Below are positions 2,825 to 55,678 of a stretch of 64,000 nt of DNA, in pieces. A program made the translations under genes and the position numbers. The stretch comes from a virus, in the IMG/VR virus record IMGVR_UViG_3300037296_000055, positions 18,505 to 82,504 of that record; one strand, 5' to 3'. The notes beneath the pieces are model-generated. The model saw only the letters and a program-made list of their open reading frames with translations, had not been told where the DNA came from and did not search any database. The first letter of the stretch is position 1; each line of letters starts with the position of its first letter.

Positions 2825-3145
2825 TTATACGTTAGCCGCAGCTTCACCGATCAGGTGGTAGGTCAGGTTAGCGGCACCGGGATAAGCCTCACGGGCCAGC
2901 TCTTCTGACGTGTAGAGGACCGTGCTGTAGACGTTGCTGCCCCGCATGATGATCCAGCTCTCCTTGACCTCGGTGTCGCTGACGGAAGTCGCCACTGCTA
3001 GAGAACGGAACTCGCCAGGAGTTCGCTCAGACTCCTTGACCAACCGGCCAGAGGTCTGAGAAATCATGATCCGGCGACCACTGTTCATGGTGTGGATCAC
3101 GTCGAAATTGGCGATGTAGCCGCCGGTGCTTCTGAGCTTAACCAT
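2825..3145 (-). CDS. hypothetical protein
   Basis: Start MVKLRS overlaps the stop of the lipoprotein gene. Confidence 0.55.
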   Translation of the reverse strand: MVKLRSTGGYIANFDVIHTMNSGRRIMISQTSGRLVKESERTPGEFRSLAVATSVSDTEVKESWIIMRGSNVYSTVLYTSEELAREAYPGAANLTYHLIGEAAANV

Positions 3146-3554
3146 TGTCAGACACCGGAACATCAGTGGTGGAGCCCTTGAAGTCGACATCAGGGATGAC
3201 CGACTGCGGACGGAACACGACCTTGTAGTGGTACTCGGACACGTCGATAGCATCGATCTGTTCGGCAAAGTAGGTCACGTTGTCAGAGAGACCCAGGTAG
3301 TGTTTCTTGTACTCGTCAGGGCCGACCTTGCAGGTGACCTTCAGGCTGGTGCCGATGTCCAGAGAGCACTTACCCTCGACCACCAGGATGTACGAGTCGG
3401 TGATACCGTTGTAGAACACGATACGCCGTTCAACACCGAAGTTCGATGCGGACTGCGACAGGTTGCGTGAGGCCACTGAGGCAGCATCATCACAGGCGAC
3501 CAGAGCGGCCAGAGCGAGCAGGGCAATGCCTGCGTTACGAAGGATCTTCTTCAT
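3138..3554 (-). CDS. conserved phage lipoprotein
   Basis: Lipobox LVAC; ASRNLS..NF..RRIVFYNGITD..EGKC and HYLGLSDNVTYF..Q motifs of a widespread phage lipoprotein family. Confidence 0.8.
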   Translation of the reverse strand: MKKILRNAGIALLALAALVACDDAASVASRNLSQSASNFGVERRIVFYNGITDSYILVVEGKCSLDIGTSLKVTCKVGPDEYKKHYLGLSDNVTYFAEQIDAIDVSEYHYKVVFRPQSVIPDVDFKGSTTDVPVSDNG

Positions 3555-4797: not shown

Positions 4798-4842
4798 AGA
4801 AGATCATTCTTCTATTATAGATACACCCTTTTCCTCACTTTT
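4798..4842 (-). promoter_or_regulatory. class A promoter-like repeat, copy 1
   Basis: 41/45 nt identical to 5809-5853; minus strand reads AAAAGTGAGGAA-N4-GTGTATCTATAATAGAAGAATGATCTTCT; intergenic, upstream of the MazG-like gene. Confidence 0.7.
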
Positions 4843-4847
4843 CTGGG

Positions 4848-5084
4848 CTATTTCCGGGAGTTCCGCAGGACCACCTTGCCGAAGTAGTTCCGCCAGTGTG
4901 GGCCCTCAGCATCCTCCCGCTTGTAGTGGTTGAAGACCTTAGGGAGCGTCAGAGCCTCCGCAGGGGACACCCAGAGCACGAGTCCTGACAGCTTGTTGAA
5001 CATGTGCAAGATGCTACCGTCCGGGGTCACCTTGAGGCAGGGGTAAGGTGTTAGGCTGACCTTCAGCTTGACCTTGACGCTCAT
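4848..5084 (-). CDS. small beta-rich phage protein
   Basis: YPCL..GSILHM..GLVL..YFGKVVLRN pattern. Confidence 0.65.
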   Translation of the reverse strand: MSVKVKLKVSLTPYPCLKVTPDGSILHMFNKLSGLVLWVSPAEALTLPKVFNHYKREDAEGPHWRNYFGKVVLRNSRK

Positions 5085-5428
5085 CCCAGGAACCTCCCCA
5101 GAATGGTCACATGACGGAGTTCGATCTTTTCGATCGTGTGGACCCCCTCTTGCCCGTGAGGTACTAGGTCGGAGAAGATGTCCAACTCCTCCTCGGTCAG
5201 GGTGGGATACACACTCTCACGGGTCTCACCACCACGGAAGTGGCCCCAGTTGTACAGGTGTGGTTGGTTTACGGAACGCTCCCGGATCAGGTCTGAGACC
5301 TTTTGCACGAGGGCAAGAGTCTCCAGTCCCTCCTTGTTGTCCGGTATCACGGTCTCCTGGGTCACGTAGTCCGCATCGTTCTCGTCGGCTTTCACCAGAA
5401 GGAAAGTCTGTGTTGTCTTGTCGCTCAT
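5081..5428 (-). CDS. hypothetical protein
   Basis: Start MSDKTT by ATGA overlap with the upstream gene. Confidence 0.65.
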   Translation of the reverse strand: MSDKTTQTFLLVKADENDADYVTQETVIPDNKEGLETLALVQKVSDLIRERSVNQPHLYNWGHFRGGETRESVYPTLTEEELDIFSDLVPHGQEGVHTIEKIELRHVTILGRFLG

Positions 5429-5766
5429 GTTGTGGGGTTCTCCGTGGTTGTGGGGGTGGGGGTGGACCTGGCGCCGGTGCTGTACCAGGCCCAGGCCGTA
5501 GCAGCGTCCTCGAAAGAAATGGCCGACTCCGGACACTGCCGTAGCCCGTGGGCCTTCTTGAACAGGAGCAGGAGGTAGGCCAACTGTTGGAACTGCTGGA
5601 GGGTATTGACCTCACCGTGCAGGAACAGGTTGATGTGGTTCTCAGGATCGCCCTCGGCAGGTACGAGGGGCTCGCGGGTGTAGGCGTAGTAGCCTCCCCC
5701 GAACAGACCGCCCTGGTCGAAGTAGAGGAACAAACGTCGTGGTGTGTCTTGGCTGATGCTGGTCAT
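5425..5766 (-). CDS. hypothetical protein, first gene after class A promoter
   Basis: 113 aa; GGAG RBS inside a 17-nt repeated leader. Confidence 0.7.
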   Translation of the reverse strand: MTSISQDTPRRLFLYFDQGGLFGGGYYAYTREPLVPAEGDPENHINLFLHGEVNTLQQFQQLAYLLLLFKKAHGLRQCPESAISFEDAATAWAWYSTGARSTPTPTTTENPTT

Positions 5767-5808
5767 GGTGTAGGTTACTCCATCAAAGGTGTTGTTGTTG
5801 TTGTGGTC

Positions 5809-5853
5809 AGAAGATCATTCTTCTATTATAGATACACTAAATTCCTCACTTTT
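5809..5853 (-). promoter_or_regulatory. class A promoter-like repeat, copy 2
   Basis: Near-identical to 4798-4842; heads the minus-strand gene block. Confidence 0.7.
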
Positions 5854-5864
5854 TACCACGTTTC

Positions 5865-5886
5865 TACCAGGGGACGTTATATGATA
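5865..5886 (+). promoter_or_regulatory. class B phage-RNAP promoter-like repeat, copy 1
   Basis: TACCAGGGGACGTTATATGATA, identical at 5911 and 23300. Confidence 0.75.
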
Positions 5887-5910
5887 TAGGAGTCCCAAAA
5901 CCGGTAGTTT

Positions 5911-5932
5911 TACCAGGGGACGTTATATGATA
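5911..5932 (+). promoter_or_regulatory. class B phage-RNAP promoter-like repeat, copy 2
   Basis: Identical 22-mer 46 bp after copy 1, followed by AGGG. Confidence 0.75.
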
Positions 5933-5986
5933 AGGGTGCCTCGGTTCCCTCATCGGTGGTCCTGACCATCAAGATAAATCAGGCTC

Positions 5987-6196
5987 TGTGACCAGACTCT
6001 TAGGGTAAGGTATCAGAAGAAGTATCTAAGCTCCACGGGGCGAGGGTCTGCCGAGGGTCACCTGAATGACAACTTGGTAAGGCGGGATGACTCAGCAGAG
6101 AGTTGTCCGAGGGAAGTAATGTCAGGTCTACTGTTACCCCGGTCCCCCTCCTTTATGATACTTCTTCTGATGCTTTACCCAGTAGAGAGGGTCATA
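5987..6196 (+). ncRNA. putative structured RNA (long closing stem, multibranch core)
   Basis: 24-bp stem 6003-6026/6157-6180 with two G:U pairs, enclosing four hairpins; no supported ORF; lies directly after the tandem promoters. Confidence 0.55.
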
Positions 6197-6305
6197 TAGG
6201 ATGTCCGAGGCTTATGAAGTAACCTCCTCATTCATCCTTCATCATCCATTCCTATACTACATCCTTCATCATACATCATCACCACACATAAGGTAATACA
6301 CCCAC

Positions 6306-6458
6306 ATGACTTACTCCACATACTTCGCCGGTGCCAACTCTGCTCCAACAGCCAGCGTTGCACCTGATGAACAACAACAACCCAACACCACAACTAAACA
6401 ACCTATCACCAGCTACTCCGAGTACTTCGGTGAAGCGGTGAAAACCATGCTGAAATAA
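6306..6458 (+). CDS. small hypothetical protein (50 aa, not in ORF track)
   Basis: TAAGGT RBS; MTYSTYFAGANS...SYSEYFGEAVKTMLK. Confidence 0.5.
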   Translation: MTYSTYFAGANSAPTASVAPDEQQQPNTTTKQPITSYSEYFGEAVKTMLK

Positions 6459-6470
6459 GGAAACCTGATC

Positions 6471-6878
6471 ATGGCACGAGGACTCGACGAAAAAGACATC
6501 GCTAAGGTGACGAAGCAAGAGAAGGGTAAACGGCTCGGAGGTCGTCCCAAAGGGGGCAAGAACCGGTTTAACTGGAACGCTGTACGCCAGATGGAAGATG
6601 CCGGGTTCGACCCCATTGAGAAGATGATGGAGCTCTATCTGATCCTCCATGAAGAGATCGTGGCAGTCCGTGAGCGGGAGGGTAAACTTACCTACACCAG
6701 CTCCAGTCTTGTCACCTCAGCACGACAGATCCTTGAGACTCTGGCCCAGTATGGCTACCTCAAACGTCGTCCTGATATCGAAGATCCTGAAGCGATGGAT
6801 CCCCTGTCGATCAAGCTTGTGCTGGTCCAGGAACAACCACGGGTGAAGGCTGAGCCTGACCCTAGCACTGAGGAATAA
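6471..6878 (+). CDS. terS: putative terminase small subunit
   Basis: GGRPKGGKNR basic motif then GFDPIEKM helical region; upstream of TerL. Confidence 0.6.
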   Translation: MARGLDEKDIAKVTKQEKGKRLGGRPKGGKNRFNWNAVRQMEDAGFDPIEKMMELYLILHEEIVAVREREGKLTYTSSSLVTSARQILETLAQYGYLKRRPDIEDPEAMDPLSIKLVLVQEQPRVKAEPDPSTEE

Positions 6879-6886
6879 TAAGCATA

Positions 6887-7195
6887 ATGACCATCCGCCT
6901 GATGATACGCCAACCTGACTGGGACGAGCAGACGTTCGTTCCCTTCGACTATGATATTGGTGATGAGGACACGGAGACGAAAGCTCTGGAGCTGTTCCAA
7001 CAACGTAAGCCAGGACCGCTGGACCGTCGTGTACAGAAAGACTTTTCGAAGCTGTTCCCTGAGGGTCTCTGGGTGGTCAGTGGCATGATCATGGAGTTTG
7101 ATGATGACGGTTATCCGTTGTTTGACCATGACGAAGATACGGGTGAGCGGATTATCCCTGACCCTGTAGAAATTCATAAAGGATACTTTCACTGA
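6887..7195 (+). CDS. hypothetical protein
   Basis: 102-aa acidic ORF with GAGG RBS. Confidence 0.65.
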   Translation: MTIRLMIRQPDWDEQTFVPFDYDIGDEDTETKALELFQQRKPGPLDRRVQKDFSKLFPEGLWVVSGMIMEFDDDGYPLFDHDEDTGERIIPDPVEIHKGYFH

Positions 7196-7347
7196 TGAGT
7201 AGTAGTAATACAACTGTAAATAAATCAGGCACCTACGCCGCTCTTGCTGCGGGCTTCGTGTTCTGTGTGGGCTATGTTGTGGGCAAAATTGCTCAGGGCA
7301 TGATCCTTGGCATCGGGGTGGCTATTACCCTGCACCTACTGGGCTAG
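7195..7347 (+). CDS. small membrane protein (50 aa, not in ORF track)
   Basis: TGATG overlap; hydrophobic YAALAAGFVFCVGYVVG..MILGIGVAITLHLLG. Confidence 0.5.
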   Translation: MSSSNTTVNKSGTYAALAAGFVFCVGYVVGKIAQGMILGIGVAITLHLLG

Positions 7348-7602
7348 AGCGCCAACCTCTGACACCAGAGGATAGTACCTCCCCCACCACCATCACTCCC
7401 CCCATCCTCAAGGAGACTTCTACTGCTATGGCACACTCTCATGCACCATTGTACAGTGAAAGCGAGGTGATCCGGTATCTCCAAGTACGTCTCTAAAGGA
7501 CACTACTTGGTCAAGGTGCCGAGCCGTTCCTCTAACGTTGATCCGGCACACCCCCACTCGTCTCTACCCCCATCATAACAACCCCCTTGAAAGAACCACA
7601 TC

Positions 7603-7782: not shown

Positions 7783-9138
7783 ATGCCCACCGTAGAACTT
7801 CACCGAGCTCAGTCAGAGATTGTCTATGACATGTTCGGACCCAATCCTGAGTGGACCCTCCGCTACGGCGTTGTTGTTGGCTCACGAGGGTTGGGGAAGT
7901 CCTACGTTGCGGCAACCTCAGCTGTCATGGCCATCGCAGAGCTGGAAACCCTCCCCTCTTCTGTTCCCAATAAAAACATCAGCTTGATTTGTGGGTCAAA
8001 CCAACAGGTTGCTGACGTTTATCTTCCTCTTTTCAACTTCGTCTACGGACTAGACCACCCACGACGCTGTGTCAAGCACACGACAGCCCTTGGCCAGGTC
8101 CGCTGGACTTTCAAGAACGGCACCACGCTCTCCCTACGCTCGGCAGAAGTCGCTGAACGGATGCGGGGCACAGGCCAGTACATGGTGATCCTTGACGAGA
8201 TGCCCACCTGGGAACTCAAAGGCTCTAACCACGAGACGGTCTGGGAGTCGATCATCAACCCCACAATCACCACCCGTTGGTCCCCTGAACAAGCCACCGC
8301 TGTTGGAGCTCCTAGCCCCGGTCGCGCTCTGTTCATCGCCTCGCCCCTCGGCAAGGACTACTTCTACGAGCTCTCCATGAACACTATCGTGGATCCTCGC
8401 TGGAAGACCCGTCAGTATACCTATCGCGACTCTCCTCTGCTGTCCCAGAAGACTATCGAGGAAGAGAAGAAATCCATGGACCCCATGCGGTTCGCCCGAG
8501 AGTACGAGGCCTCCTTCGAAGAGTCTGGTGCTCGTGTCTACCATTCGTTCGATCGTGTTATGCATGTTGAGAAAGACTTGGCCCCCTTCGGAGAGACCGA
8601 GACTGTCCATGCCGCTATCGACTTCAACGTTCTGAAGAACTGCACAAGCTTCCATGCCATCCGTGGTGGCCAAATTCACACACTGGAAGAGTCCATTGGT
8701 ACAGCAAATACTCAAGAGCTTGCGGAGCTTATCCGTCGTCGCTTTCCTAAGAACAAGATCATCTGTTACCCTGACCCCTCAGGAGTTGCAAGAAAGACTT
8801 CCGCTGTGGTTGGAGTCACCGACTTTAGTATCCTACGACAGGCAGGCTTCGAAGTTCTAGCAAAGTCTAAGGCCCCTGGTATTACCGACTCTGCCAACGC
8901 TGTGAACAGGATGTTCCTGAACGCTGCTGGAGAGACCAACTGGTATGTCGCTCCTGTCTGCACCCACTTCATCAAGTCTCTGGAACGTACTGTGTGGCTA
9001 GAGAGCCGCCCTGACTCGGCCATCATTGACAAGTCTCTGGACGTGGAACACTTCGGCGACGGTGCTCGCTACTTCGCTGAGTACATGTTCCCCGTAAACT
9101 CCTATCGTACAGCAACCAAGAGAGGCTTTGTGTTCTGA
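7783..9138 (+). CDS. terL: terminase large subunit
   Basis: Walker A GSRGLGKS, Walker B VILDE, FAREYEASF, nuclease AIDFN, YPDPSG, HFGDGARY. Confidence 0.95.
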   Translation: MPTVELHRAQSEIVYDMFGPNPEWTLRYGVVVGSRGLGKSYVAATSAVMAIAELETLPSSVPNKNISLICGSNQQVADVYLPLFNFVYGLDHPRRCVKHTTALGQVRWTFKNGTTLSLRSAEVAERMRGTGQYMVILDEMPTWELKGSNHETVWESIINPTITTRWSPEQATAVGAPSPGRALFIASPLGKDYFYELSMNTIVDPRWKTRQYTYRDSPLLSQKTIEEEKKSMDPMRFAREYEASFEESGARVYHSFDRVMHVEKDLAPFGETETVHAAIDFNVLKNCTSFHAIRGGQIHTLEESIGTANTQELAELIRRRFPKNKIICYPDPSGVARKTSAVVGVTDFSILRQAGFEVLAKSKAPGITDSANAVNRMFLNAAGETNWYVAPVCTHFIKSLERTVWLESRPDSAIIDKSLDVEHFGDGARYFAEYMFPVNSYRTATKRGFVF

Positions 9139-18755: not shown

Positions 18756-21700
18756 ATGGAAAATCAAGACATCTTCGATCGGCAGGTAGACCACCTGATC
18801 CGCACTCGTATGTTCACCGAAGAGCTTCAGAACAAAGTCTCGTCCATGTCCGAAGGGCATCGTCGTAGTCTCCTGAACATCTTCCGTACTGGACGACCGA
18901 GTGAGATCCGCCTGGAAGTCAACCGCTACGTGGAGGAAATGAAGTCCTCCATCCGTGGTGGTATGACCGACTACCTTGGAGCGGAGATCTCTTTCCAAAA
19001 GTCAACAGCTCAGCGTTCTGTGGGGAGCTTCTATTCCCTGCAGGATGTTGACCGTGGCAAGGTGGCCAACCGGCTGCTGAACCAGCCTATCACCTTCTCG
19101 CAGACTTCCTCTGTAGGGACAGGCATCCTTCCTTCCCTGGATGCCATGGCCCCTGCCCAAACCTCTCGCCTGAACACCGTGATCCAGAAGGGTCTGTTGG
19201 AAGGCAAGTCAAGGGCCGAGATCGAAGCCTCTCTGCTGAAGACCACCAAGCTGACCGAGAACCAGGCCCGCACCCTGGTCACCACCGGTATTACCCATGC
19301 GCAAGAATTGACCACCCAAGAGTTCTGGGACGCTAACCCTGATGTTCTGTCAGGCTTCGTCTACACAGCAATTCTGGATGGTAACACCACTCGCACCTGC
19401 GGCTCCTTGGATGGCACTGTGTTCCCTGCGGATGCTGTCACCCATCGCCCACCCCTACACTGGAACTGTCGTTCTAGTCTGGTGCCTGTCCTGAAGGACT
19501 ACGACGCTCTGGTTGCCACTGACAGCCCACGCGTCACACAAAGCGCCCTTGCTGACATTCCTCCGAGCAGGTTCAATGGCCAACCACCACTCCGCGAGAA
19601 CTTCGAAGAGTGGTTGCGTCGTCAGCCCTTCAAGCGACAACAATCCTTACTCGGCTCCGAAGATGCTGCCACTCTGTTCCAGAACGGTACGCTCCGGATG
19701 AACGAGTTCTTCACTAAGCTGAAACGTCCTATCTCTATCGGCCAACTCCGCACACTGGATGCCAAGTCCACCTTCTCGTATTCAAAAGACTCTCTGGATG
19801 CTAAGGTACGTGTTGCGGCCACCCGTCCTGCAGATCTTGTTCGTAGCCCTGGCTTGGCCAAAGATCTAAAGGCCCTAATTCTGGCGGACGCCCGAGATGC
19901 CTCTCAGTCAATTTCTCTCACTGACTATCGCGGTGTTACCCTTGGAGGTAAGCGCAGCGTACGTCGTGCTACTTACAATGAGTACGATCCTCGCAACCAC
20001 CAGTATGATCCCTACACCGGCGAGGTTAGAAGTTCATACTACTACAACCCCGACTATGTCTTACTTACAGAGCGCCTTGATGTTATCCAACGATCCCAGG
20101 TACTCTCCAAGCCCCAACGAGAATGGATCACGAAGTTCGTAAACTCTCTGGAGGATGACGTCTCCGTGAACCAGCAGTCCGTGATTGCTGAGACACTACG
20201 TCTTACCTTCGAGCGTGCTGCCCGTGACACCTCCATGGGCTGGAGCGACTATGCCGGTGTTTTCCGGGCCGAGTCCAAGTTTGGTGTGACCAACGTCTCC
20301 CGTATCCTTGACCGACGCTCTCGTGCCGGTGACGAGATGTTCACCCGCTTTGCTGATGTTGATGAGCCTGCCGCTATCCAGATCCTGGGTGAGTGGAAGA
20401 CCTTTGAAGACCTCACTTCTAATCGGAACCGGAACCAACAGTTCATTAGGGACTGGGACAAGCAAGAGGGCCGCGCTCTGGCACGGAGGGTATACTACGG
20501 GCGTGCAGTTGACCTTGCGAAGGGTCGTGTAATAGACGCTCCTGGTGCTCCCACACGGGCCTATTTGCTGGGCCTCCGTCCGAAGGTCAAAGGACCTAAC
20601 AAGGACATTGTCAAGTGGGTCGAGGCCAACATCCCTGGCATCAACACTTTCAAGTTCGGAGCTCTGAAGGGCTCTAACACTGTGGCTGGCTGGATCGAGT
20701 CGGTCCCCGGAGTGAAGCAGTGGAACTCGTTCATGAAGGAATGGGCTAAGCCTTACGATCCGATCCTCTACCGTCTGAAGAATGGACTGAGTGCCAAGGT
20801 ACGTAACATCCTTGACCTTGAGTTCCTGAAGATGAGTGACCGACGTGGTCTGGTTGACCGCTTCATAACTTCCCGAGTTCTTGGGGACAACGAAGACATT
20901 CAGGTGCTGCAGAAGGTGATGAAGACCATCGCCGGAGGGACCATGACTGACTATGACGGTCTTGCCATCACCATCGGTAAGGAACTGTACAAGCAGTATC
21001 GCCCTCTCCGTCCCTGGTACAAGCCTACTCTGCAAGACTACCACCGGGATGGTGCGGGTATCCTTGAGTCTCTCCGTGAGAACGGTACGCTCCGAGTGAT
21101 GTCCCGTGGCGTGAACCGTCGTGGAGTTCTTGACCTTGATACAGGTCGTGTAGGACCACCTTTCCGAGACACCGTGTCCCGTGAGGTGACCATCCTTGAT
21201 AAGGACCTGGTTCAGCTCCAGCGAGCTAACCGTGAGATCATCGTTGCTGACCGTGTGGGTATCACAGGTCCCTCCAACGAGTATCACGTTCGTGTGGGTA
21301 AGAAAGAGTACTTCGACGCTTACGGCAACAACACTGGTCGTTCTGTGATCACCAGGTCTGCAGCGCCGTTCTACGATGAGAACCTGATCGATAAAGACTT
21401 CGCTGACATGCTCAATCATACCATGTCTTCCAAATACCAGACCGATAACGACTTCTCCCGGTTCATGCTGGACCTTGCCCGCTTCCGCGATGTTCGTGGT
21501 CGTGTGGACTACTATGACGACCTCAACCTGTTCCGCCACGACATCATCAAGCGAGGAGAGCAAGGCTTTGGGCTTATGGAAACTGTAAAGTTCCACAATG
21601 CTCGACAGAAGCCCTTCTCCGTGATGGCTCGTATCGACGGTCGAGGCCGTGTCTACTACAATGGCTATCTGACCCCCACAGGCGGTGAGATGGTCCGACC

Positions 21701-23276
21701 CTTCCTGAACTCTGCCAAGGCTGTGCCTATGACGCCAGGGGGACTACAACAACTTCGTGCTACCATCGGTGTTCTGACAGGTAGCTCCACTGAAACCCTA
21801 ACAGATGCTGGACGCTACGCCTCCTTCTACAAGAACGAGAAATCAATCTTGGAGATCGGTCGGCTCATGCAAGCAACCACTCAGCGAGATCGTCGTATCC
21901 GTGAGTTCCTCGAACATCCTCTCATCCGCGCAACGGACGGTGAGGAGGTGGCCAAGCTAGGCCGCTTTGCTCTGGAATACGCACGTATCCACGATCACAT
22001 GGGCGGTGACTTCACGGATCTACGCAGGCTCTCGTTGTACGAGACGCGTCTGATGTCCGAGGTCGATGCCAGTGCCAGCGCACTACAAATGATTTCACTT
22101 GCCACAGGTGACCGCCAAGCAGCACTCTTGTCTAACGTTCTTCCCACAACTCGGAAGCAGCGGATCTATGACATTGTTGCTCAGGAAGTTGCCAGTGACC
22201 CTCGGTTCCTGAAGATCATGGAAGAAACCGGACTTGACCTGAACTGGGAAGACCTTCAAAAGGCTGCCAAGTATCACGTCCTTGTTTCCTACTATGGTGC
22301 CGGGAGCACAGGCCAGCGTGCCCGTGTTACTGCCGAACTTGTGAACATCCTGAAGAAACGAAACGTGGGCTACATTACACGTTCTGAACAGCTTGCGGTG
22401 AACCGCGCCCTTACTGACAACATCAAGACAGCAACCGCAATGGGAGCTGAGGAGACTGTTGATGCCCTTACCTCGTTCAAGCGTGAGCTGAATGATCTGG
22501 TCAAATCAGGAGAGCGTCCGTCCACAGCAATGTTCACTGAAGCGGCTGAGATGCATCCAGACGTCTTCAACTTTCTTGATAAGCTGTCCCGTCCAACGGC
22601 AGATCCCTTCGTCGGTCCCGAGACCTTCAAAGATATCGCTGTCCTGTTGTCCGAGAAGCTGGAAGAACAAACCCCGAGGGCTTCCCAGTACATCAAATTC
22701 TGGAAGAAGGCTGCCCAGCGGTTTGCAGAAGAGACCAACACGGTCGACGTCCCCTGGGTTACTTTCGACGGAAAGCAGCTATGGCAGAGGTATCGTCCTA
22801 AGGTCCAAGAGTCAATACGTTTCCGTGATCCTGTGTCGAACCGCTTCGTGCGGAACGTGTATCAGGAGGCAGCGGAGAGCGCCACACTGCTTGGCAAGGG
22901 TTCCATCGGCGATGTTCGCCTAGGGGCTGGAGTCAACGGTACCCACATGAATGACGCCTCGATCGTGAGGATGTTCCACCTGTGGGGTAAGAAGAACGGT
23001 ATCCAGACGGGCACCATTCATGACGCTTTCTTCGTGAACCTAAATCACCTTGACGACTCTGTCCAGACGCTTCTTGAGATCTACGCTAAGGCCTCTCAGG
23101 CCCACCAGATCGAGAACACGATGCTTGCCATGCTTAAGGAAGGCATGACCAAGTCCTCGTACAACGAACTGCTGGCGACCGCGAGAGAACTCGGTTTGAT
23201 AGGTCAAACTCTTGACCCGAACGAGATCTTACGTATCCCGAACGCTAACGAGTCCCGCTACGGTTTCGGCCCCTAA
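18756..23276 (+). CDS. MuF/SPP1-gp7 minor head domain fused to T7-like single-subunit RNA polymerase (candidate virion RNAP)
   Basis: N-terminal YTAILDGNTT..C..LDG..RPPLHWNCRS; C-terminal DGRGRVY, motif A VDASASALQ, motif B K-x7-YG, NGTHMNDA, motif C IHDAF. Confidence 0.9.
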   Translation: MENQDIFDRQVDHLIRTRMFTEELQNKVSSMSEGHRRSLLNIFRTGRPSEIRLEVNRYVEEMKSSIRGGMTDYLGAEISFQKSTAQRSVGSFYSLQDVDRGKVANRLLNQPITFSQTSSVGTGILPSLDAMAPAQTSRLNTVIQKGLLEGKSRAEIEASLLKTTKLTENQARTLVTTGITHAQELTTQEFWDANPDVLSGFVYTAILDGNTTRTCGSLDGTVFPADAVTHRPPLHWNCRSSLVPVLKDYDALVATDSPRVTQSALADIPPSRFNGQPPLRENFEEWLRRQPFKRQQSLLGSEDAATLFQNGTLRMNEFFTKLKRPISIGQLRTLDAKSTFSYSKDSLDAKVRVAATRPADLVRSPGLAKDLKALILADARDASQSISLTDYRGVTLGGKRSVRRATYNEYDPRNHQYDPYTGEVRSSYYYNPDYVLLTERLDVIQRSQVLSKPQREWITKFVNSLEDDVSVNQQSVIAETLRLTFERAARDTSMGWSDYAGVFRAESKFGVTNVSRILDRRSRAGDEMFTRFADVDEPAAIQILGEWKTFEDLTSNRNRNQQFIRDWDKQEGRALARRVYYGRAVDLAKGRVIDAPGAPTRAYLLGLRPKVKGPNKDIVKWVEANIPGINTFKFGALKGSNTVAGWIESVPGVKQWNSFMKEWAKPYDPILYRLKNGLSAKVRNILDLEFLKMSDRRGLVDRFITSRVLGDNEDIQVLQKVMKTIAGGTMTDYDGLAITIGKELYKQYRPLRPWYKPTLQDYHRDGAGILESLRENGTLRVMSRGVNRRGVLDLDTGRVGPPFRDTVSREVTILDKDLVQLQRANREIIVADRVGITGPSNEYHVRVGKKEYFDAYGNNTGRSVITRSAAPFYDENLIDKDFADMLNHTMSSKYQTDNDFSRFMLDLARFRDVRGRVDYYDDLNLFRHDIIKRGEQGFGLMETVKFHNARQKPFSVMARIDGRGRVYYNGYLTPTGGEMVRPFLNSAKAVPMTPGGLQQLRATIGVLTGSSTETLTDAGRYASFYKNEKSILEIGRLMQATTQRDRRIREFLEHPLIRATDGEEVAKLGRFALEYARIHDHMGGDFTDLRRLSLYETRLMSEVDASASALQMISLATGDRQAALLSNVLPTTRKQRIYDIVAQEVASDPRFLKIMEETGLDLNWEDLQKAAKYHVLVSYYGAGSTGQRARVTAELVNILKKRNVGYITRSEQLAVNRALTDNIKTATAMGAEETVDALTSFKRELNDLVKSGERPSTAMFTEAAEMHPDVFNFLDKLSRPTADPFVGPETFKDIAVLLSEKLEEQTPRASQYIKFWKKAAQRFAEETNTVDVPWVTFDGKQLWQRYRPKVQESIRFRDPVSNRFVRNVYQEAAESATLLGKGSIGDVRLGAGVNGTHMNDASIVRMFHLWGKKNGIQTGTIHDAFFVNLNHLDDSVQTLLEIYAKASQAHQIENTMLAMLKEGMTKSSYNELLATARELGLIGQTLDPNEILRIPNANESRYGFGP

Positions 23277-23299: not shown

Positions 23300-23321
23300 T
23301 ACCAGGGGACGTTATATGATA
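23300..23321 (+). promoter_or_regulatory. class B phage-RNAP promoter-like repeat, copy 3
   Basis: Identical 22-mer followed by GGGG; upstream of scaffold and capsid. Confidence 0.78.
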
Positions 23322-23497
23322 GGGGTGGAGTATTTATGCTCCCCCCTGCCCCCGGTTGATCGATGCTGATGATCGAAACTTCATCATTCATCCTTCATTC
23401 CTCCCCCAAGATTATCTAATGATGATAATCATGAAACCCTTCCTTGGGACTGTGTCCCTAACCTTGTCAATAGCTGTGCTACTGGAGAACTACTACT

Positions 23498-55550: not shown

Positions 55551-55662
55551 AGAAGTAGTCCTTAGAGTTGTAGTATGATGGAGGAAGAAGGATGAATGAC
55601 GTGGTTCCACCCTATAACCGGGGGGCGGGCAGGGGGGAGCATCGTCCTCCCTCTTCCTGCTT

Positions 55663-55678
55663 TAACGTCCCCTGGTAG
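55663..55678 (-). promoter_or_regulatory. class B promoter-like repeat, variant copy 4
   Basis: Minus strand CTACCAGGGGACGTTA, 16-nt core identical to copies 1 and 3; upstream of nrdH. Confidence 0.7.

Follow-up and report, generated by a model that had tools for sequence, protein, structure and literature searches.

A long closing helix in the packaging-operon leader of a salt-lake phage, with a covarying RNA in the same position in related phages

In phage T7 a phage promoter followed by a target of ribonuclease III (RNase III) is the standard arrangement; each T7 genome has some ten such sites, local hairpins about 50-60 nt long that contain an internal loop. Dunn and Studier are said to have placed T7 site R0.3, in 1983, behind the tandem early promoters A1-A3, and R1.1 beside promoters 1.1A/1.1B. 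The substrates that Escherichia coli RNase III acts on usually comprise two turns of helix, and helices that stack coaxially can serve (PMC1540722). Promoters 1.1A and 1.1B, in tandem, also make up the primary replication origin of T7 (PMC12796468, citing Romano et al., 1981, and Fuller and Richardson, 1985). Here we examine an element at positions 5987-6196 of a 64,000-nt stretch of phage DNA (the window: bases 18505-82504 of the 82,504-bp IMG/VR record IMGVR_UViG_3300037296_000055, rated complete), whose two ends are complementary and would close a long helix in the leader of the packaging operon.

Like the T7 RNase III sites, this element places a helix of at least two turns behind promoter-like motifs in the leader of a first gene, and both phages use a T7-type polymerase. 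Unlike them, it is a single long-range helix enclosing 130 nt, the only one in its genome, and its cleavage is a prediction. The reading that we favour, tentatively, as possible rather than probable, is of a leader helix acting at the RNA level, in cis, and probably cut by host RNase III. The original prediction, made from the letters of the window, had among several possible roles likened the long closing stem to the a1/a2 architecture of a retron. A retron msr-msd does have long inverted repeats closing a non-coding segment, and the inverted repeat is present here, but an msd-type hairpin or branching G is not assignable without a reverse transcriptase; the analogy fails because none is encoded anywhere in the complete 82.5-kb genome (PF00078, no match at E values up to 1, with control genomes matched), and no Rfam retron family matches.

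The long closing helix

The two 24-nt arms, 6003-6026 and 6157-6180, pair through 22 Watson-Crick and two wobble pairs (G7:U and U9:G), and both imperfections are G:U on the + strand, exactly as first described. Outward the pairing resumes across small internal loops, with 4 bp at 5997-6000/6184-6187 and then 7 bp at 5987-5993/6190-6196, which bears out the claim that the stem reaches 5987/6196 through bulges. Pair probabilities in the closing helix are 0.8-0.99. As + strand RNA, 5987-6196 has a minimum free energy (MFE) of -96.4 kcal/mol, with z values of -6.4 and -5.8 against two independent shuffle sets, and none of 200 shuffles was as stable. The minus strand folds to -77.0 kcal/mol (z -3.8), leaving the + strand better by 19 kcal/mol, and on the minus strand the helix falls to 15 contiguous pairs. 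With both strands of the complete 82,504-bp genome scanned for helices spanning up to 400 nt, this one is the longest uninterrupted; the runner-up has 19 bp, six of them G:U, and the chance expectation for such helices is about 2e-5. The closing helix is a real, non-chance feature.

The enclosed insert (6027-6156) gave a z of -0.62 when folded alone, and 52 of 200 shuffles were equally stable; because the core alone folds like shuffled sequence, the whole fold signal belongs to the closing helix. Of the multibranch core that had been drawn inside the helix, the listed hairpins do appear in the MFE structure, and the one at 6085-6108 has a pair probability of 0.99, but the core as such has neither statistical nor comparative support, and an elaborate multibranch non-coding RNA is not borne out by a fold at chance level. 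The missing fold signal is weak evidence against a structured core, and there is none in favour either; it is weak because the covariation-supported cores of the relatives' RNA described below themselves score only z -1.3 to -2.7. The element is non-coding, as had been proposed: two TTG-started frames (41 and 39 aa) are the only open reading frames (ORFs) that overlap it on the + strand, and the minus strand has none.

One alternative takes the helix as one state of an element that, by switching conformation or imposing a pause, acts on the phage RNA polymerase or on translation, with the 5' strand pairing either internally or with the distal arm and so gating read-through or ribosome access. 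Internal 6-nt partners for 5988-5993 and 6003-6008 are readable (GGUCAC at 6056-6061 and UUACCC at 6134-6139), but pairings this short are expected by chance, and the distal helix dominates the ensemble (p 0.99). With no terminator-like site behind the helix and no riboswitch match in Rfam, we consider such a switch highly unlikely.

Within the element the 7-mer GAGGGTC occurs at window positions 6042-6048, 6053-6059 and 6187-6193 (+), that is, three times in about 150 nt, compared with 23 occurrences in 165 kb (both strands); two copies lie in the enclosed 130 nt and the third in the outer 3' strand. The 7-mer might serve as a binding motif or have arisen through internal duplication (6042-6057 and 6098-6113 form a direct repeat). 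Repeats of CCGAGG type are found at 6051, 6107 and 6205.

The leader and its promoter-like motifs

Tandem promoters had been placed directly upstream of the element. Two exact copies of the 21-mer ACCAGGGGACGTTATATGATA, our class-B motif, are indeed found there, at 5866-5886 and 5912-5932, at the head of a leader of about 370 nt that precedes the operon of the terS-like gene. Three exact copies occur in the window against zero expected. The class-B motif heads three operons; every copy is intergenic and points into a gene block, with G-rich bases and a small hairpin behind it, the hairpin at +1 being found after the other copies as well. The ACGTTA core of the motif is also present in the promoter-like motifs of relatives with which the phage shares its T7-type RNA polymerase. 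From this repetition, position and conservation we infer that the class-B motifs are promoters. No sigma-70-type promoter or intrinsic terminator was found in 5600-6600.

The packaging leader was compared with the other class-B leaders. The genome contains exactly three copies of the 13-mer TCATTCATCCTTC, at window 6228-6240 (+), 23384-23396 (+) and 55587-55599 (-), one in each class-B leader, on the transcribed strand, within a G-poor stretch and with the start codon 38-102 nt further on. These copies may tag the leaders for translation, processing or protein binding. The promoter end lies 296 nt from this 13-mer in the packaging leader and 63 and 57 nt from it in the other two, so that the long-stem element amounts to an extra module of about 235 nt in an otherwise standard leader.

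The gene that the original prediction called terS, an ORF of 135 aa, is in the right place and has shared gene order with relatives on its side, but it had no match in Pfam (E values up to 5) or PHROG, and Foldseek against the PDB found no fold match. Its AlphaFold model is of low confidence (predicted local distance difference test score, pLDDT, 62.6) and consists of a helical hairpin and two short strands. One public protein, on a 1,168-bp ENA contig, is 66% identical to it.

A T7-type replication origin would make another use of this arrangement: transcripts from the tandem promoters would prime the leading strand for the family-A DNA polymerase, and the helix would shape or release the primer, or be incidental. 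The likeness to the T7 primary origin is considerable, since the phage has two exact 21-mers 46 nt apart, which would be tandem promoters if our assignment is right, a lower-GC spacer next to the element (41% GC), and the T7-like set of a family-A DNA polymerase (PolA), a Toprim-DnaB (gp4-like) primase-helicase and a T7-type RNA polymerase. The motifs stand at the divergence point of two gene arms, where the cumulative GC skew turns, and tandem motifs stand at this place in the roseophages DSS3_PM1 and DSS3_VP1 as well. The skew turn, however, coincides with the switch of gene orientation and so is not independent evidence. Unlike the T7 origin, a 210-nt self-paired segment separates the promoters from the lower-GC stretch, and that stretch is a general leader feature of the phage, the G-poor spacer and the tag being present in both single-promoter class-B leaders too. 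A self-folded RNA is moreover a poor candidate for a persistent RNA-DNA hybrid, and the relatives with an analogous RNA have a single promoter. We regard an origin at this site as very unlikely.

Leader RNAs of related phages

No sequence homologue of the element was found by blastn of 5700-6500 against 50,697 phage records, nor of the leader by nhmmer and blastn against 82 related loci. The exact 21-mer and the protein pattern of the 135-aa ORF had no matches in IMG/VR, and searches with the large terminase (TerL) in IMG/VR and JGI metagenomes returned nothing closer than 59% identity. No Rfam family matched the element: cmscan with Rfam 15 over 5000-7500, both strands and E values up to 10, listed only three small nucleolar RNA (snoRNA) rows at chance level (15-16 bits, E 2-6), and no tRNA or transfer-messenger RNA (tmRNA) was found in that region. 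A Y RNA or YrlA was ruled out, as there is no tRNA-like or Rfam match and a family search of the genome found no gene for the Ro (TROVE) partner. Covariation in related phages, one of the checks named in the first description, was seen in another RNA: the element itself has no homologue to compare, and a different, covarying RNA lies in the same slot.

The nearest phages lack any such RNA. In the closest group (TerL 58-59% identical; for example L004) one ACGTTAAAGA-type motif is followed by a leader of only about 20 nt, and then by the same two genes, the 66-aa ORF of L004 matching the 50-aa ORF of the window (E 0.002) and its 158-aa ORF the 135-aa ORF (E 7e-7). Relatives whose polymerase is 42-47% identical have ACGTTAAAG-type motifs at equivalent places. 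The cultured roseophages DSS3_PM1 and DSS3_VP1 (Naomviridae; TerL 49% identical) encode a protein homologous to the T7-type RNA polymerase (42% identity, E 1e-179); in them a large terminator is followed by two tandem ATAGGGTGCGTTAAAGA motifs, and these by a structured leader of a different kind, closed by a stem of 14 bp (L009:3162-3255). Repeated ATAGG(G/T)T(G/A)CGTTAAAGA motifs, in tandem before late genes, are each followed by a hairpin from about +1 in these two phages; the words 'RNA polymerase' do not occur in the paper describing Naomviridae.

In a third group (TerL 46-50% identical) at least 22 of 80 IMG/VR loci have a conserved RNA of 138-216 nt, which we designate R1. It comprises a 7-bp outer helix, a closing stem of 15-23 bp, a hairpin whose loop is CUACUG-N-CUGAAAG, a CCCCCCG/CGGGGGG helix and a 6-bp pseudoknot. 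Across 18 distinct sequences the paired cells amount to 96.4%, and both sides have changed in 21 of the 36 pairs; for the pseudoknot this holds for five of six pairs, in six different compensatory variants. None of 500 shuffles reached the observed values, and slid controls were 39-51% paired. Stem mismatches, where read directly, are G:U on the coding strand. The compensatory changes in the closing stem point to an RNA rather than a DNA site. R1 had no match in Rfam; a strict pattern for it found 39 IMG/VR contigs.

R1 occupies the slot of the window element. In 13 of the 18 distinct cases it directly follows the invariant motif ATACCTGACGTTTAAGA, and in 13 of 18 a homologue of the 135-aa ORF lies 0.2-1.4 kb downstream; terL begins 0.9-3.2 kb further on from the RNA, and the promoter is single. 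The two elements share this position, after an ACGTT-type motif and before the 135-aa ORF homologue, as well as a 7-bp outer helix, a small internal loop, a long closing stem, a purine-rich 5' arm and coding-strand wobbles. They differ in the core: that of the window has no CUACUG-N-CUGAAAG loop, no CCCCCCG/CGGGGGG helix and no pseudoknot, and it lacks the fold signal of the R1 cores. There is no sequence similarity. An R1 model run on 5700-6500 of the window gave no hit by default, and 4.7 bits (E 0.5) with filters off, the long stem alone aligning. Taken together, the lineages that share the polymerase and the promoter core include three with dissimilar long-stem RNA modules before the packaging genes and one without.

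These comparisons bear on two readings in which no RNA is needed. In the first, the inverted 24-bp arms, 154 bp apart centre to centre, are DNA sites: either a pac site, to which the small terminase binds, or the target of a regulator of the divergent promoters. Pac phages, SPP1 among them, have their pac site in the region upstream of the small-terminase gene, and the arms are directly upstream of the terS-like gene, with no fold signal in the core between them. The record ends overlap by 127 bp, so the genome is taken as a circular assembly, and its true ends are not fixed by that assembly. Bulged complementarity of about 40 nt per side is, however, not expected of protein half-sites; all differences between the arms are wobbles on the transcribed strand, here and in the analogous stems of relatives, and the covarying pseudoknot inside the relatives' element can act only as RNA. 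We therefore see little likelihood of a DNA-level site.

In the second, the element is a selfish or neutral palindromic insertion of no use to the phage, resembling a miniature inverted-repeat transposable element (MITE) or stemming from a recent inverted duplication. Terminal inverted repeats of 24 to about 40 nt do surround a 130-bp core without fold signal, and the closest relatives have nothing but their short leader before the same two genes. The genome, though, holds a single copy, the flanks show no direct target duplication and are themselves complementary, and relatives have a functional RNA in the same slot. No paired copy of the arms turned up when an exact 18-mer was searched in IMG/VR (one single-arm match) and in 185,579 GTDB species genomes (28 single-arm matches, against about 17 expected by chance on our own estimate); the partner arm was never present, a search of this kind being able to miss diverged copies. 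An insertion without function thus seems improbable to much the same degree as a DNA site, and the cis-acting RNA helix remains our preference.

The features are listed in Table 1.

Table 1. Features of the window and of related loci (positions without a locus prefix are those of the window)
Feature	Position	Strand	Remarks
Class-A repeat, 45 nt	4798-4842 and 5809-5853	-	Minus-strand motif; splits the source-run Logan assembly into two contigs there
Class-B promoter-like 21-mer ACCAGGGGACGTTATATGATA, copy 1	5866-5886	+	Exact repeat
Class-B promoter-like 21-mer ACCAGGGGACGTTATATGATA, copy 2	5912-5932	+	46 nt downstream of copy 1; AGGG next
Promoter-proximal leader, two small hairpins	5933-5986	+	Fold not above chance, z -0.30
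Outer 5' strand of closing helix	5987-6002	+	7 bp + 4 bp, small internal loops; pair probabilities 0.5-0.99
5' arm of 24-bp helix	6003-6026	+	Both non-Watson-Crick positions G:U on + strand
Enclosed insert, 130 nt, 56% GC	6027-6156	+	Fold at chance level
3' arm of 24-bp helix	6157-6180	+	Pairs with 6003-6026
Outer 3' strand of closing helix	6181-6196	+	From fold and pair probabilities
G-poor spacer, 9% G, 41% GC	6197-6305	+	Contains 13-mer tag TCATTCATCCTTC
First ORF of packaging operon, 50 aa	6306-6458	+	N-terminus like first ORF behind single promoter of L004, pairwise E 0.002
terS-like ORF, 135 aa	6471-6878	+	Name by position and synteny
Large terminase TerL, T4-type	7783-9138	+	Pfam Terminase_6N, PHROG 2
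MuF-RNA-polymerase fusion	18756-23276		Pfam Phage_Mu_F + RNA_pol
Class-B 21-mer ACCAGGGGACGTTATATGATA, third exact copy	23301-23321	+	Whole-genome scan
Class-B 14-nt core (first 14 nt of 21-mer)	55663-55676	-	Whole-genome scan
Stand-alone T7-type RNA polymerase, left arm	L008:8746-10932	-	Pfam RNA_pol, E 2.9e-74
Roseophage ATAGG-type motifs	L009:3057-3075, 3148-3166; L010:2244, 2335; also L009:6513, 7344
Third-group RNA (R1), examples	L074:3187-3350 (+); L112:379-539; L119:3425-3585; L110:2436-2598; L118:605-781; L078:2052-2230; L054:2327-2518; L079:185-400; L091:1644-1732; L084:1983-2143; others
Large terminator-like hairpins	L009:2946-3012; L010:2148-2214; L110:1949-2014; L078:1578-1647; similar

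Several further observations were made at these loci. In many relatives the preceding operon ends in hairpins of 25-33 bp, rich in G:U on the coding strand, which are terminator-like and unusually large; that of L009, the sole one read fully, has a T run of more than 20 behind it. In L004 the most stable 200-nt stretch of the locus lies inside the terL ORF (5351-5550, +; -77 kcal/mol against a mean of -43), and a 13-bp long-range helix joins 5066-5078 to 5429-5441 within the same coding region. The annotation of DSS3_VP1 splits the large terminase in two, with a gene for endonuclease VII in the gap (L010:4390-6410), a homing-endonuclease-type interruption that DSS3_PM1 lacks. The phage of the window also encodes a portal-like protein, and a 138-aa ORF at window 3138-3554 (-) that matches Pfam Phage_VG64 (the Mycobacterium phage VG64 family; E 1.4e-50), which is surprising in a phage that comes from a salt lake and has roseobacter phages as its nearest cultured relatives. 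A part of the class-A repeat, AGAAGAATGATCT, has a weak likeness to the 5' arm of the long stem (p 0.07 for a local match of 13 nt), and the idea that the arm is similar to the class-A promoter was dropped. The Logan contigs of the source run are of even depth, contain no variants and break nowhere but at the class-A repeat.

Possible action of the helix

The structured leader of the original prediction fits what was found: a non-coding leader behind a promoter-like motif, a helix that is better on the + strand, and a covarying long-stem RNA at the same position in relatives. We read the window helix as a cis-acting RNA element because of this analogy with the relatives' RNA and because of its own strand bias. 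RNase III was chosen as the mechanism because the helix exceeds two turns (about 35 bp stacked) and because T7 sets its RNase III sites behind promoters in the same way; the 24 uninterrupted bp, with 4 and 7 bp more across small internal loops, reach the substrate length of about two turns.

In the favoured reading, transcripts of the packaging operon would probably be started by the phage's own T7-type RNA polymerase at the two tandem promoters. In their 5' leader a quasi-continuous helix of about 35 bp (24 uninterrupted) would form in vivo, close off the 130-nt insert and act in cis. Double-strand cleavage by host RNase III would then remove the two promoter-proximal versions of the leader and release the insert, and the mRNA would be left with one 5' end, some 125-150 nt before the first ORF. 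In this way the terS-like and terL genes could have their mRNA stability and their translation set independently of promoter strength.

A number of points weigh against this reading. The two wobble pairs are weak evidence of strand bias, the chance of both falling on the + strand being about 0.03-0.1 by our own estimate, and a plain inverted repeat in DNA would give the same fold score, since the core is not distinct from random. The helix is the only one of its size in a scan of both strands of the genome, compared with some ten RNase III sites in T7, and a family search found no RNase III gene in the phage. The tandem promoters suggest high output, which is odd beside a destabilising cut. 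The searches found no sequence homologue in which the arms of the element could covary, and among sequencing runs the stretch was found in one DNA run, labelled salt-lake metagenome, which may be the source sample, and in no RNA run.

Alternatively, processing might free a stable piece of about 130-180 nt that acts in trans, for instance in packaging, like the pRNA of phi29, in countering a host defence as sponge or decoy, or in regulating other phage messages. The design of the closing stem is like that of excised stable RNAs, the conserved pseudoknotted core in the relatives' slot suggests more than a cleavage signal, and the repeated GAGGGTC could be a protein-binding motif. phi29 pRNA likewise lies beside packaging genes and has a helix made from its 5' and 3' ends. 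Here, however, the core fold is at chance level, the Rfam pRNA and Y RNA families are among those without a match, and the genome offers no Ro or reverse transcriptase partner. A phi29-type packaging RNA, one of the roles first suggested, is further disfavoured by a T4-type TerL with a terS-like partner in place of the phi29-type ATPase. A crude duplex test for antisense pairing between the core and the tag common to the leaders gave nothing significant (p 0.22), and the nearest relatives do without any such RNA. A trans-acting product is, on this evidence, unlikely.

A broader proposal, still rather doubtful though less so than a trans-acting product, is that the head of the packaging operon in this polymerase-encoding clade is a slot for interchangeable RNA modules, of at least three unrelated types (that of the window, the pseudoknotted one and that of the roseophages). 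Each would be clamped by a long stem made of its own ends, and together they would be more than processing signals, a new class of device that times or licenses packaging. Such modules might, for example, sense a metabolite or a phage protein, or act with the small terminase.

For the window element the claim is a modest one and concerns one phage. If the helix is a processing or stability device, as we tentatively prefer, late genes would be controlled through RNA processing, a mode characterised until now chiefly in T7-like podophages, in a very different lineage as well, the long-tailed, polymerase-carrying phages of salt lakes and the sea; the helix would also give a handle on how such phages set their terminase levels. 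Of possibly greater weight is what the comparison yielded besides: an uncatalogued RNA, pseudoknotted and strongly covarying, that lies before a small-terminase-like gene in dozens of uncultivated phages.

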